NCBI GenBank assembly: GCA_020137815.1
Contig: CM035356.1
Coordinates: forward strand, 806,001-870,000
Reading direction: 5' to 3'
DNA: 64,000 nucleotides
From: Hormiphora californensis
Lineage: Eukaryota; Animalia; Ctenophora
The notes under the pieces are model-generated. The model saw only the letters and a list, made by a program, of their open reading frames with translations, was not told the DNA's origin and did no database searches. This document shows positions 20,801-38,800 of this stretch, piece by piece. The first letter of the stretch is position 1. Every line of letters begins with the position of its first letter. Both the position numbers and the translations under genes were made by a program.

Positions 20801-23800
20801 GTGCAGTTGAATACTAACTAGTAACTATCCCACATTTTAGTAGACCCCCAGCAGCCCATCATACCATGGTTAAAGTTTCACTATTCCTAATATTCCTCCT
20901 ACTTCTCCTTCCCTCCTCCCAAACTCGTTCCATGCCTCGTGGTGATGCTGCCCTGAGTGAGTCGTTCTTCTTCAAACCTAAGGATGCAGATGGCCCACAA
21001 TTTGATCCAGATCAGTCGAATAAGGGGGAAGGATATTCAGAGAGACGGGTAGTGAAGATAAGTGCCGAGATAACTGTGACGGAGGGAGTGAATGATAGGA
21101 ACTAATAATAGTGTGTGATTATTAGTTAGAGTTTCTGTAGATTGGTAGCGATTAGTTGAGATTGTTGTGCAATGTGTAAATTAGTTTTTCATTTGGTTTC
21201 CCTGTGGGAAAGATGGTTCTTGTTATTTGGTTATTCACAATCATTACAGCCGCAGTATCAGCTTCTGATGATCTTGAAATTTGAAATTCAGGAAAACTAA
21301 AAAATCATCATTCCACATGATTCATTCTGTGGCTCACATCGCATTTCTGTGAGGATTCAGTAGATTCGTTCAATCAACGCTTCAACAGTCCGTACATAAT
21401 ATTTGAATTGTTCATACTTTCTTTCACGGTCACAGTGTCAGGCGACTCAACATAATATCACATATAGGAACAAGATAGATAGTATCTTCACTCGCTGCAT
21501 TCTCACGTTTCTCTCTTTTTTCTCACACAACACGCCCTACTGTACAACAGTGAAGGGGAAACATACAGCGGGCAGATCTCAGGGTGGAAGGGTCATTTGT
21601 TAATTATTATAATGAGATCTGATCAGGATTAAATAGGGAGGAAACTAGAAAAATATCTGGCGAGGGCCGGGCTCGAACCGACAACCTCTGCATTACATGT
21701 ACATTGCTCTAACCTATTGAGCTACCTCGCCTACAAAATAGGGAGGAAACTAGAAAAATTTAATCCTGATCAGATCTCATTATAATAATTAACAAATGAC
21801 CCTTCCACCCTGAGATCTGCCCGCTGTATGTTTCCCCTTCACTGTTGTACAGTAGGGCGTGTTGTGTGAGAAAAGAGAGAAACGTGAGAATGCAGCGAGT
21901 GAAGATACTATCTATCTTGTTCCTATATGAGTTACAGCTGCAATATCTAAGGGCATGATCAGTGATATAGAGAGAGGAAATGTAGATAAATTGTAGGCGA
22001 GGTAGCTCAATAGGTTAGAGCAATGTACATGTAATGCAGAGGTTGTCGGTTCGAGCCCGGCCCTCGCCAGATATTTTTCTAGTTTCCTCCCTATTTAATC
22101 CTGATCAGATCTCATTATAATAATTAACAAATGACCCTTCCACCCTGAGATCTGCCCGCTGTATGTTTCCCCTTCACTGTTGTACAGTAGGGCGTGTTGT
22201 GTGAGAAAAGAGAGAAACGTGAGAATGCAGCGAGTGAAGATACTATCTATCTTGTTCCTATATGAGTTACAGCTGCAATATCTAAGGGCATGATCAGTGA
22301 TATAGAGAGAGGAAATGTAGATAAATTGTAGGCGAGGTAGCTCAATAGGTTAGAGCAATGTACATGTAATGCAGAGGTTGTCGGTTCGAGCCCGGCCCTC
22401 GCCAGATATTTTTCTAGTTTCCTCCCTATTTAATCCTGATCAGATCTCATTATAATAATATCACATAGTATCAGTATCTTGTCAAGTGCAGTAGGGTGAT
22501 CAAATGTACCCCATAGTACAATTATTTGACCTACAACTATTGTACTGCATACAAGCTGTTTCATGTTTCATGTTAGTTTACATTGTTTTGTTTTCAGAAA
22601 GAGACGGAGGGAGGGAAAAAGAAGGCGATACAGATTATTGACCCGAAGCGTGCACAGGTGGGTTAAGATAGAAATGCTCCATATGCTGTGACAGCATTGC
22701 TGTCCCAGTGACAGTGATAGTGACAGGATGCGAGAGACATAATAGCATGTCAAGTACCATTGGTACTACCAGTGTGAACAGTAGAACACTCATGACAAAA
22801 GTTTTATCTGTATGATCAGTCACGGACAAAATTTCCTCTATTATTTCTATGTCTTATTTTTAACCCATGTTCCCGCTACAGAACCTGACTATTCTGCTGT
22901 CGAAGATCAAGAAGAGTAATGATGAGCTGATTGATATTATATTTAGCTGCGACAAACAGAATCTTATCACAGTGGACATGTGGGAACAGGTACTGCTATA
23001 CCAGACATAGTAGTTTGGGGTGTACTTTACGTAAGTCGCATCTTTGTTGATTTATTGTCTTGTACGTGGTCGGTCATTGTCAACAGTTGGGTCAAAACGT
23101 CTCATGTAAGGGGGAATTATATTGGTATAAGCTTGTAAAGTATCTTATGGAACATTTTAAGAGCCTCTTGGAACACGGTCAAAGCAACAAATAACAGAAT
23201 ATAAGGAAACCACCATCTCCGATCCTATCAACTCCGCTCCCAGTTGGGGAGACCCCTGAACAAATGGTAATCATTTCAACCATGATAGAGCAACAGTTCA
23301 AGGAGCTAAAGGGGTTCGTTGAAAGTGAGACTAGGTGGCTGAAAAATGAGATAGCCAAACAGGTAAAGAAGGTTCGTTACGTTGCAGTTCGTTTCACTTT
23401 TGCTTGTCTCAGACACCAATAAGGGCTCTTCCTCTCACTAAAATGCAACTTAAATCCGTCTCAAATACCCATTTCTAGCACACATGAACTCCCAGTTACC
23501 ACTGAACTGTCTCTCGGGCCTGGCCTAGTCTCATCACTAAATTACAGCTACATTCTTGGCCAATATTACCCACCGCCCCACCCCCACCCGCCCTACCCCA
23601 CCCACCTCTCCCTATATAGCGGACATTGCTATACACCACACTTATCGCTTATCGCGTGTAACAACTAACAATTGTTCTTATCTGTCCCATCTGCATAGTA
23701 TTCTAGAACATTTTACAGCATATTGGTGCTACATTCAGTCCTACCCCTTATTTGTGTTCAATCGTTTTTGTTTATCTTCATCTCTGATCCACTGGAAATG

Positions 23801-35800: not shown

Positions 35801-38800
35801 CACTTTCTCTCTCACACATACACGCCCTACTGTACAACAGTGAAGGGGAAACATACAGCGGGCAGATCACGGTTGTGGAAGAATGGATTGGTTAAATATC
35901 AATGATGAGATCTTGTTCAGGATTAAATAGGGAGGAAAATTAGAAAAATATCTGGCGAGGGCCGGGCTCGAACCGACAACCTCTGGGTTTCGCGTCCATT
36001 GCTCTACCTATTGAGCTACCCCGCCGACAATTTAACTACATTTCCTCGCTCTATATCCTGAACATTGCCCTTAGCTATTGCAGCATCACATATCGGAACA
36101 AGATTTTTAATATCTTCTCTGGCTGCTAATCTCACTTTCTCTCTCACACATACACGCCCTACTGTACAACAGTGAAGGGGAAACATACAGCGGGCAGATC
36201 ACGGTTGTGGAAGAATGGATTGGTTAAATATCAATGATGAGATCTTGTTCAGGATTAAATAGGGAGGAAAATTAGAAAAATATCTGGCGAGGGCCGGGCT
36301 CGAACCGACAACCTCTGGGTTTCGCGTCCATTGCTCTACCTATTGAGCTACCCCGCCGACAATTTAACTACATTTCCTCGCTCTATATCCTGAACATTGC
36401 CCTTAGCTATTGCAGCATCACATATCGGAACAAGATTTTTAATATCTTCTCTGGCTGCTAATCTCACTTTCTCTCTCACACATACACGCCCTACTGTACA
36501 ACAGTGAAGGGGAAACATACAGCGGGCAGATCACGGTTGTGGAAGAATGGATTGGTTAAATATCAATGATGAGATCTTGTTCAGGATTAAATAGGGAGGA
36601 AAATTAGAAAAATATCTGGCGAGGGCCGGGCTCGAACCGACAACCTCTGGGTTTCGCGTCCATTGCTCTACCTATTGAGCTACCCCGCCGACAATTTAAC
36701 TACATTTCCTCGCTCTATATCCTGAACATTGCCCTTAGCTATTGCAGCATCACATATCGGAACAAGATTTTTAATATCTTCTCTGGCTGCTAATCTCACT
36801 TTCTCTCTCACACATACACGCCCTACTGTACAACAGTGAAGGGGAAACATACAGCGGGCAGATCACGGTTGTGGAAGAATGGATTGGTTAAATATCAATG
36901 ATGAGATCTTGTTCAGGATTAAATAGGGAGGAAAATTAGAAAAATATCTGGCGAGGGCCGGGCTCGAACCGACAACCTCTGGGTTTCGCGTCCATTGCTC
37001 TACCTATTGAGCTACCCCGCCGACAATTTAACTACATTTCCTCGCTCTATATCCTGAACATTGCCCTTAGCTATTGCAGCATCACATATCGGAACAAGAT
37101 TTTTAATATCTTCTCTGGCTGCTAATCTCACTTTCTCTCTCACACATACACGCCCTACTGTACAACAGTGAAGGGGAAACATACAGCGGGCAGATCACGG
37201 TTGTGGAAGAATGGATTGGTTAAATATCAATGATGAGATCTTGTTCAGGATTAAATAGGGAGGAAAATTAGAAAAATTCGAGCCCGGCCCTCGCCAGATA
37301 TTTTTCTAATTTTCCTCCCTATTTAATCCTGAACAAGATCTCATCATTGATAGTATAAGGTGAGAGTCGAGTTGTGTAACTGAACAATATTCAACGTTCT
37401 AGACAAGAATAGAGAAACATAGTTTTACATGCTCTTTAGAGTGCAGGCATTCTTCTTTTTGCCTTCTATCACCGGCCCAAACGAGGGACATTTACCAATT
37501 CCCCCACATTTTCTGGCATATTTTCAACTTTATAGCCCTGCAGTATCTCCACATGTTTCATACCAACTGTCTCGCAGGACGCTAAAGAATTGCTTGTAAA
37601 GAAGCGAGAGGACGAGGAAAGAAAGAGAAAGAAGCAGCTCCAAGCAATGAGCTCCTCGGAACAATCACGACCATCCAGCCCCCGATCTAGACCTCGATCC
37701 CCGGCTGCTGGCAATGTTCCAGGAGGATCGTCCTCGGTAGGACCAACCTCAACCACCTCAACCCCTGGATCCCCCATCCCTATTGAAATGATCATGGATA
37801 TGTTGCCCTCCCTCGATACCCTGGAGCAGCAGGATCATGATATGTTGTTAAATGATCTGATGGGACCCACACCAAGTAGGTTGTTTGGATTAGGGCTCCA
37901 ATTAGTCAAAGGGCACGCACAGACTGTTCATGCGTGATCATGTCCATAAGTGGGCAAGATTTTGATCAAGTCACGCAGACTGATCAAGCTTGATCATCTG
38001 ATCAAGCTTGGACAGTAAAGACTGAAACTTATTCATACCAACGCGAAAACCACTGTACCCGACTAATTTTGATGCTCTGAATCACGTAAGCTAGTTTTCA
38101 AATCCTTCGGAGGTCGGGAATGTGTCCTAATTGGGTCTAATTGACCCCACTTACAACTTGTCACCTGGAAATGACGTGAGCGCACTTTTCCAACTAATTT
38201 TGATACGCTGAATCACAAAAGCAACTTTTCCAAGCCCCCAGAGGTCGGGAAATGCCCTAATTGAGCAATTAAGGCCAATTAGATCCAATTATACTCAATT
38301 AGGACACTTTCCCGACCTCTGGGGGCGTGGAAAAGTTGTTTATGTGATTCAGCGTATCAAAATTAGTCGGAAAAGTGCCCTCACATAAGCGTCTATTATT
38401 TCCAGTTTTAAGTGGGGTCAATTAGACCCAATTATGCCCAATTAGAACACTTTCCTGACCTCTGACGGATTTGAAAACTAGCTTACGTGATTTAGAGTAT
38501 CAAAATTAGTCGGGTACTGCAGTGGTTTTCGCTTTGATATGAATAAGTTTCAGTTTTTACTGTTCAAGCTTGATCAGATGATCAAGCTTGATCAGTCTGC
38601 GTGACTTGATCAATATCTTGCCCATTTATGGACATGATCACGCATGAACAGTCTAGTCTGTGCGCGCCCTAATAAGGGCACCAATTAATCAAATTAGGGC
38701 ATAAACTCCATCTCTATTATCATGCAAGGCAGGAGTAACTCAGCTTGTATTGTTAGATTTTCTAATTTCCTCTCTTACAGGTGGCCCAAAAGCAAAGGAA

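Follow-up and report, generated by a model that had tools for sequence, protein, structure and literature searches.

A family of tRNA-headed tandem repeats inserted twice in a ctenophore formin gene and probably copied in trans by a Penelope-like enzyme

Two insertions in a 64,000-nucleotide stretch of the Hormiphora californensis genome (hereafter the window) consist of tandem and inverted copies of one short unit, and they raise the question of what kind of element spreads in this form and which enzyme copies it. Both lie within introns of a gene that encodes an animal formin. The answer that we favor, with a probability of roughly 0.6, is that they are recent members of a high-copy, non-coding family with a unit of ~333 bp that is headed by a tRNA-like module and lacks a detectable ribozyme, which was copied in trans by the reverse transcriptase-endonuclease of a Penelope-like element (PLE) and whose tRNA head serves as a Pol III promoter. 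The first-pass annotation of the window had described a non-autonomous retroelement with a twin-priming signature and conserved ends, and this description is borne out by empty-site-type contigs, by recurring ends and by an anatomy like that of published PLE insertions. Unit position 1 is where the tRNA-like module begins. Unit A spans window 21996-22330 and has 335 nt, and unit B has 332 nt. The two are 84% alike, in keeping with the homologous 332-335 bp monomers noted earlier. Insertion 1 is made up as follows.

21452..21464, + strand: left copy of the 13-bp target site duplication (TSD), whose final 4 nt also match the element
21461..21736, - strand: left arm, unit 269 -> 1 -> 331, whose end lies upstream of the tRNA module by 4-5 nt
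21658..21731, - strand: tRNA-like module of the left arm (Rfam tRNA, 56.5 bits), with a non-canonical anticodon arm
21737..21759, - strand: 23-nt piece linking both arms, unit 100 -> 78, suggestive of a template jump
21760..22459, + strand: right arm, 2.1 identical 335-bp units, starting at 98-100 and ending at 124-129
21996..22069, + strand: tRNA-like module containing segments like an A-box and a B-box; a T5 tract comes next, at unit 79-83
22148..22197, + strand: stem-loop, unit 153-202, between both end sites (49 of 50 nt the same in A and B)
22331..22404, + strand: tRNA-like module, second tandem copy
22455..22467, + strand: right copy of the 13-bp TSD, whose first 5 nt also match the element

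The earlier description of insertion 1 had overlooked a third junction (331->100). Insertion 2 is much longer and directly follows a coding exon.

27185..27303, + strand: host exon for the C-terminal end of a formin FH2 domain (Pfam match weak), immediately before insertion 2
27295..27306, + strand: left copy of the 12-bp TSD, spanning the splice donor at 27303/27304
27305..37277, - strand: long arm of tandem 332-bp units, 262 to 77, nominally 30 units with 15 recognizable tRNA modules
28080..32931, - strand: garbled, apparently unpolished part of the array, orientation unchanged, best fit ~19 units
37278..37352, + strand: short inverted arm, unit 55 -> 129
37352..37363, + strand: right copy of the 12-bp TSD

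The host exon is spliced at 27303 in run X22, where the formin exon has 82% identity. Rfam miRNA matches at 37235-37342 merely reflect the inversion hairpin.

The 12-13 bp TSDs claimed in the first-pass annotation are exact at both sites and cannot be extended on either side, and the chance of a repeat of at least 12 anchored at two random window junctions was 0.0008 in 20,000 trials. Comparison of 8 out of 22 sequencing runs with the unit and its flanks also yielded alleles of the empty-site type, which had been proposed as a check, in the form of contigs that stop at the TSD edge at both loci: the alignment of X7 record 22 breaks off exactly at 22455, beyond which the contig has another 64 letters, and record 18 of run X6 aligns with 27186-27306 and continues with 291 other letters. 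The insertions are therefore highly improbable as assembly or read-chimera artefacts, since alleles of the empty type break off precisely where the TSDs do, inversions are found in contigs of four runs, and the filled left junction of insertion 2 is covered by an independent short-read contig (X2 record 9, 27210-27334). What speaks for artefacts is that the perfect identity of units may stem from polishing and that ~4.85 kb of insertion 2 (28080-32931) is garbled, being homopolymer-rich and of low quality, with 27% of bases in runs of at least 4 versus 7% in the unit. As this part is fitted best by ~19 units and not by 14.6, the array length of insertion 2 is nominal only, and it is to array length that the concern about artefacts is limited. 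The same part holds all ORFs of at least 120 aa found inside the insertions.

The outer ends of the two insertions recur elsewhere. The nearly shared outer start (269 versus 262) and the shared outer end (129) that had been pointed out in these two copies correspond to two end sites in the unit, at ~121-129 and ~260-270, which lie ~135-140 nt apart and return in contig clusters and in a metagenome copy. Near 262-270, 15 of 111 (X2), 12 of 152 (X6) and 14 of 98 (X13) partly fitting contigs exit the unit, and the sequence beyond these exits is heterogeneous (agreement 0.46-0.54); near 121-129, 21 of 93 (X1) and 12 of 91 (X5) do so, and the metagenome copy ends at ~128. These loose ends come from tables in which 18 of 269 and 20 of 300 rows are listed. 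As stated earlier, the outer ends are 3' ends in the tRNA sense, which holds for all four, and the 1-5 nt of microhomology to the target read from the sequence comes to 4, 5, 2 and 1 nt. Such a pattern makes spread at the DNA level very unlikely, in which staggered breaks would capture tRNA-derived satellite units that travel as extrachromosomal circles or through template-switching break repair. The homogeneity of the long arrays and the microhomology seen at each junction would suit that explanation, as would the lack of a clear RNA signal. Against it stand the two end positions, which recur with unchanged polarity in two species and in a metagenome copy, the clean TSD of each insertion, and inner junctions that favor predicted RNA helices.

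Somewhat less improbable, though still unlikely, is a SINE-like element moved by an ordinary LINE (L1/Tx1-, RTE- or CR1-type) through classical twin priming, with arrays that expanded later. The unit does have a tRNA-type head, the TSDs fall in the 4-20 bp range of LINE-1, and 5' inversions are ascribed to twin priming, both according to PMC4859970. In that review, however, LINE-1, SVA and processed pseudogenes are the only sequences with reported inversions, and Alu is presumed to have none. The insertions also have two fixed internal 3' ends, not one, both arms of insertion 1 are circularly permuted multimers, and neither insertion carries a poly(A), confirming the earlier remark, or a simple-repeat tail.

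The inner junctions are more variable than the outer ends. The shared flip point once proposed as part of the integration signature is real in these two copies (77-80) but is not a constant of the family, as only one of the 10 opposite-strand joints listed in four other runs lies at 79. All 10 have exactly one side within 137-220, between the end sites, and the other side falls within 54-98 in 7 of the 10. Three of the 10 listed joints are head-to-head by geometry alone, and the binomial P of 6e-4 for the joints applies to a single zone picked post hoc. The varied flip points in the joint tables led us to abandon the idea that the RNA has a fixed 5' end at position 78. Five junction sides cluster in the T arm, which was noticed after the fact and is a hint only. 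Inversion is not universal: long single-arm contigs show none among the joints listed (X1 record 2, X6 record 19, and X7 records 18, 20 and 21), indicating that two-sided priming is not obligatory. Record 2 of X1 starts at about -6 of the tRNA, and the left arm of insertion 1 stops at -4/-5.

The tRNA-like module is preserved unevenly. It scores 52-57 bits as an Rfam tRNA, with intact D and T arms and with A and B boxes, as in the head of a tRNA-derived SINE. The T arm and 3' acceptor strand are the same in units A and B at 30 of 30 positions, compared with 11 of 17 in the anticodon arm; the acceptor stem stays paired across both units, whereas the anticodon stems are mismatched and position 33 in the standard register is A in unit A and G in unit B. 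ARAGORN calls unit A Tyr and unit B Ser without a long variable arm. We rejected a functional tRNA gene array because of the non-canonical anticodon arm and the lack of a single identity. ARAGORN makes 18 spurious tRNA calls within the window, and such arrays thus inflate tRNA gene counts. A T5 tract lies 5 nt past the tRNA in all three copies read. Such a tract should end most Pol III transcripts, which makes 30 rounds of read-through implausible. No ribozyme was found: Rfam ribozyme families, including hammerhead, gave no match at E up to 10, the hammerhead core motif is absent from both strands, and a relaxed hammerhead descriptor had no match in the tRNA sense and one non-conserved antisense match. 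An HDV-like descriptor was uninformative (4 and 2 tRNA-sense matches versus a mean of 5 in shuffles).

The RNA of the unit is predicted to form a tRNA-capped rod, in which the trailer (75-125) pairs with the leader (270-335), plus the stem-loop at 153-202, and both end zones (~121-130 and ~261-270) are predicted to be mostly unpaired (0.59-0.86). Acceptor-stem pairing probabilities in the linear dimer were low (0.01-0.34) and were set aside, since equivalent strands of neighboring units probably compete in this model. Covariation between the two sequences was uninformative, with 1 pair changed on both sides and 267 of 500 shuffles scoring as high. A both-sided change in the helix of trailer 104-113 with the leader is seen in separate folds and is misaligned in alignment A1.

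These features bear on a further explanation, which keeps PLE-type mobilization but takes the tRNA fold as a processing signal. RNase P and/or RNase Z would cut read-through multimers, and the units would be ligated to circles and reverse transcribed in rolling-circle fashion, as with the hammerhead in retrozymes. The element would then be the equivalent of a retrozyme without a ribozyme, an RNA the size of a viroid in which a tRNA mimic and host tRNA-maturation enzymes replace self-cleavage to give a unit-length circle that a Penelope-like enzyme rolls into genomic arrays. We regard this as doubtful, although it is the strongest of the competing accounts. It would explain why the T arm and acceptor strand are conserved and the acceptor stem is paired, as a promoter alone needs no acceptor stem; it also suits the lack of a ribozyme, the one arm of ~30 units, and a circular fold moderately below shuffles in the tRNA sense (z of -1.8 and -3.0). 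Yet the antisense folds equally well (-3.3 and -3.4), the leader-trailer helix is also predicted in a linear multimer, and nothing in the RNA runs points to a circle. A joint in X12 that goes back 332 was rejected as such evidence, as it merely reflects the cut point of the query stretch. No junction falls at the expected cut sites +1 or 75, the nearest being at 77-80, and two-sided cutting would strip the tRNA, yet the units retain it. Leader and trailer are, moreover, predicted to extend the acceptor stem. An extended acceptor stem should hinder RNase P and RNase Z. A role of the module as a Pol III promoter explains it at least as well as one as a hammerhead substitute, given that insertion 1 has a left arm whose end, 4-5 nt before the tRNA, coincides with the expected transcript start.

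Two species carry the family at high copy. In six of their DNA runs, contig depth summed over the unit reaches 1e4-5e5, versus 10-500 on the single-copy flank, values that are not copy numbers. A marine RNA run (X12) contained one 227-nt unit contig with a depth of 3.6 that could be DNA, and RNA runs X16-X20, where shares were small (0.06-0.07), were excluded from the evidence. The unit was absent from X22, a weak negative in a divergent run. As exact motifs, the stem-loop had no match in metagenome or viral contigs, and the tRNA-trailer had one in metagenome contigs and none in prokaryote genomes.

Under the favored reading, copying by a PLE enzyme in trans, each insertion duplicated 12-13 bp of AT-rich target, as the TSDs and empty-site-type alleles show. 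Transcription would run in the tRNA sense, either from the element's own tRNA-type promoter, reading through T5, or by host read-through of arrays, and the RNA would adopt the predicted rod and stem-loop with its two single-stranded zones. A dimeric PLE enzyme may bind near the stem-loop at 153-202, a candidate binding site of the mobilizing enzyme, and nick both DNA strands 12-13 nt apart, so that each nicked 3' end could prime cDNA in one open zone via 1-5 nt of microhomology. Both cDNAs would extend toward the RNA 5' end, stall variably (often in the T arm, at ~78 or at ~98-100) and be joined in head-to-head orientation. Much of the output would consist of lone arms or of inverted pairs of short length; a small number of copies, these two included, would be multimers copied from multimeric or circular RNA and able to seed new copies. 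Two findings sit less easily with PLE copying: the end sites lie ~135-140 nt apart versus 30-40 bp for published PLE tails, and microhomology is present at all four ends, whereas PLE priming in vitro was reported without target homology. The suggested search for a Penelope or LINE partner drew a blank within the window, where none of the 57 ORFs matches an RT or GIY-YIG family.

Among known systems, the element behaves like metazoan non-LTR retrozymes (PMC7229834, Cervera and de la Pena 2020; 10.64898/2026.07.22.740005, Li et al. 2026) and yet falls outside them. It shares with them non-coding tandem units of 150-450 bp with GC below 50% (here 332-335 bp and 0.44), monomer-to-multimer copies, TSDs longer than 4 bp (here 13 and 12 bp), and proposed mobilization by PLEs, of which animal retrozymes have been proposed to be non-autonomous derivatives (10.64898/2026.07.22.740005). 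Retrozymes, however, carry a type I hammerhead in each unit and are said to lack promoters (PMC7761336), whereas here a tRNA-like module with promoter-like boxes takes the place of the hammerhead; circular RNA has been shown for retrozymes, while this element is known from assembled contigs. PLEs and their non-autonomous forms (Naiad/Chlamys, MRC1) insert as incomplete tandem arrays next to an inverted copy that is truncated at its 5' end, and one end of the insertion bears a tail (PMC8557442); tandem plus inverted 5'-truncated copies are also what we find. Purified Poseidon PAc cuts AT-rich DNA on both strands, extends each of them and initiates at two sites within the RNA (PMC11167929), which resembles the two recurring end sites, the proposed both-strand priming and the AT-rich targets here. 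Naiads are without canonical hammerheads and occur in ctenophores, but Naiad/Chlamys prefer microsatellites, which the two targets here are not; the tRNA head and the wider end-site spacing also set the element apart from PLEs.

Schistosoma Sm-alpha and Sj-alpha are likewise tRNA-derived, SINE-like, high-copy and termed satellite DNA, and the tandem element Sm-alpha joins a hammerhead to its tRNA-derived part (PMC2770079), whereas no hammerhead is detectable here. Helenus (TRIMp3; Kojima 2024, PMC10886601), with one family in a ctenophore, is also a non-autonomous retroelement whose repeated unit contains a tRNA-like sequence and which occurs in tandem arrays, but it belongs to the LTR type and has a PBS, a PPT and, in animals, TSDs of 4 bp, in contrast to the 12-13 bp TSDs, inverted arms and lack of a separate internal region here. 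tRNA-derived SINEs are monomers that run from the tRNA to a poly(A) or simple repeat, unlike these permuted, tail-less multimers; some single-arm contigs do begin near the tRNA. The literature searched, with Repbase and Dfam outside its reach, held no description of a PLE parasite with a tRNA promoter. If the favored reading is true, the family would be such a SINE-like parasite, of Penelope-like elements and not of LINEs, and the insertion footprint of a retrozyme would be possible without a hammerhead. A young, polymorphic 333-nt RNA family in which two priming zones are mapped and a single stem-loop is conserved would also offer a compact substrate for studying how PLEs choose templates and how tandem-plus-inverted copies arise.

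The ~333-bp repeat carried by both insertions is a real and young mobile family, a variant of the retrozyme or non-autonomous Penelope-like element (PLE) kind. We number its unit from the first base of a tRNA-like module. It occurs in two versions that match at 84%, unit A with 335 nt and unit B with 332 nt. The insertions are built as follows:

21452-22467, insertion 1: target-site duplication (TSD); minus arm, unit position 269 through 1 to 331; a 23-nt piece, 100 to 78; plus arm, 98-100 to 129, covering 2.1 units; TSD
27295-37363, insertion 2: TSD (27295-27306); minus arm, 262 to 77, nominally 30 units; plus arm, 55 to 129; TSD (37352-37363), the duplication overlapping a splice donor

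The first-pass annotation had read homologous monomers, 12- to 13-bp TSDs and 1 to 5 nt of target microhomology at the outer ends, and all of this held. The TSDs, of the type left by staggered cuts, are exact over 13 bp in insertion 1 and 12 bp in insertion 2 (chance 0.0008 per site in this window), microhomology at the four outer junctions is 4, 5, 2, and 1 nt, and the outer ends are 3' ends in the tRNA sense. The array length of insertion 2 is uncertain because 28080-32931 is garbled, co-oriented sequence that fits ~19 units, and identity among the 13 clean units may partly be a polishing effect.

Exons of a formin-like gene flank both insertions (weak FH2 matches at 13658-13918 and 27189-27302), and a spliced contig in sequencing run X22 confirms that one exon ends at 27303. 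Insertion 2 alters positions +5/+6 of the intron, the original donor now lying 10 kb farther downstream; formin splicing may be weakened on the allele that carries it. Other features of the window are as follows:

11289-11862 and 14772-15030: diverged tandem repeats (163 bp and 90 bp) in formin introns
16514-17911 (-): alpha-tubulin-like ORF (Pfam Tubulin) between formin exons, apparently intron-nested
19153-19704 (+): lineage-restricted ORF resembling a secreted peptide precursor, two homologues only, also between formin exons and apparently intron-nested
23031-23160 and 23375-23400: further interspersed intron repeats, by high contig depth, the first common to both species
38055-38517: MITE-like nested inverted repeats, 89-nt arms, 90% complementary
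43167-49665: complex higher-order repeat of ~187-bp subunits inside a glycosyl hydrolase 47 gene (minus strand), in which duplicates of 160- to 300-bp segments lie ~2.2-2.4 kb and 1.2 kb apart and are 98-100% identical
61436-61759 (+): weak match to 7tm_1 (E 0.003) that may mark a receptor exon

Data from outside the window came from contigs of eight public runs and one metagenome locus, L001. The insertions are real and polymorphic. A 510-nt contig of run X7 (organism B) matches the right flank of insertion 1 and ends exactly at 22455, the first base of the right TSD copy, with 64 extra letters; a 412-nt contig of run X6 (organism A, another sample) matches the exon and ends exactly at 27306, the last base of the left TSD copy of insertion 2, followed by 291 non-fitting letters. 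Judged from their break positions and not from the extra letters, these are what empty alleles would give, as the first-pass annotation had proposed to look for. It had also raised the possibility of assembly artefacts at the junctions; an X2 contig reads across the left-hand junction of insertion 2 (27210-27334) with zero differences. Two SNPs of the X6 allele also occur on a second X2 haplotype, and insertion 2 is therefore probably heterozygous in the X2 sample.

The repeat is a high-copy family with two fixed ends. Summed contig depth over the unit exceeds that of the flanks by two to four orders of magnitude in six DNA runs from two species, a figure that is not a copy number. Contig exits were read among the loose ends listed (18 of 269 and 20 of 300). 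Among the partly fitting contigs, exits into heterogeneous sequence just past 262 (~269-270) number 15 of 111 in X2, 12 of 152 in X6, and 14 of 98 in X13, and exits after ~121 number 21 of 93 in X1 and 12 of 91 in X5, part of the latter first carrying a few further B-type bases. The L001 copy ends at ~128. Separately, X7 depth over 22300-22428 is highest on the tRNA module, reaching 1.8e5 versus ~24 in the flank, which suggests that the subfamily there is larger or that another repeat has the same tRNA head.

Inversions are common and their flip point is variable. The joints between opposite strands that were listed number ten (137/79, 139/17, 139/98, 181/291, 199/54, 215/67, 220/97, 213/63, 209/59, and 206/323). 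In each of them one side, and only one, falls between the end sites, as expected if one arm starts at ~265 and stops before ~130 while the other starts at ~129. Position at the stretch edge forces head-to-head geometry for three joints, and the remainder are compatible with it; several long contigs list a single arm with no inversion (X1 record 2, X6 record 19, and X7 records 18, 20, and 21). The inversion point shared by these two insertions is not supported as a constant of the family, as only one listed joint lies at 79; what survives of the twin-priming-type retroelement is the two-sided footprint with recurring ends. RNA in the tRNA sense would serve as template, and both nicked strands would prime synthesis in the end zones, which are mostly unpaired in the predicted fold.

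The module scores 52-57 bits as a tRNA. Between A and B its non-canonical anticodon arm is alike at 11 of 17 positions, the variable loop, T arm, and 3' acceptor strand at 30 of 30, and a stem-loop at 153-202 at 49 of 50. If a Pol III transcript were copied in full, the copy would end just upstream of the tRNA. Because the left arm of insertion 1 begins at 269 and stops 4-5 nt short of the tRNA on its upstream side before it jumps, and X1 record 2 starts at about -6, the tRNA likely acts as a promoter. Two points bear on this reading: the T5 tract at 79-83, after the module in A, B, and L001, is a difficulty given Pol III terminators, and the 30-unit arm is left unexplained, since it needs a circle, extended host transcription through a source array, or expansion at a later time. 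Circularisation by tRNA enzymes, with the fold as a processing signal, would fit the preserved acceptor stem but is improbable, as no junction lies at the expected cut sites. Predicted trailer-leader pairing (-30.7 and -35.7 kcal/mol; 6 and 1 of 500 shuffles equally stable) requires no circle. One contig of a marine RNA run (X12) covers unit positions 9-235 and could be DNA.

Rfam (E up to 10) and motif scans for described classes found no ribozyme, and none of 57 window ORFs matched a reverse transcriptase or GIY-YIG family (57 of 69 listed; the other 12 overlap these in different frames or were covered by a separate scan). In the literature covered, which included few subscription papers and lay outside Repbase and Dfam, we found no ribozyme-free, tRNA-headed element of PLE type described. 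Sm-alpha is tRNA-derived and has a hammerhead (PMC2770079), the LTRs of Helenus are tRNA-like and its TSDs in animals measure 4 bp (PMC10886601), and LINE twin priming is established for long templates (PMC4859970). Non-LTR retrozymes work alike (PMC7229834, PMC7761336, 10.64898/2026.07.22.740005), but this family has no detectable hammerhead, the feature that defines them. PLE copies are arranged as partial tandem arrays that include an inverted copy truncated at its 5' end and carry a tail on one side (PMC8557442). The end sites here, however, lie ~135-140 nt apart, versus 30-40 in PLEs, and these insertions differ further in their microhomology to the target. Purified anole PLE is described as cutting and extending both strands of AT-rich DNA, initiating at two internal RNA sites, with hammerhead cleavage dispensable in vitro (PMC11167929), behaviour that the proposed two-strand priming would match.
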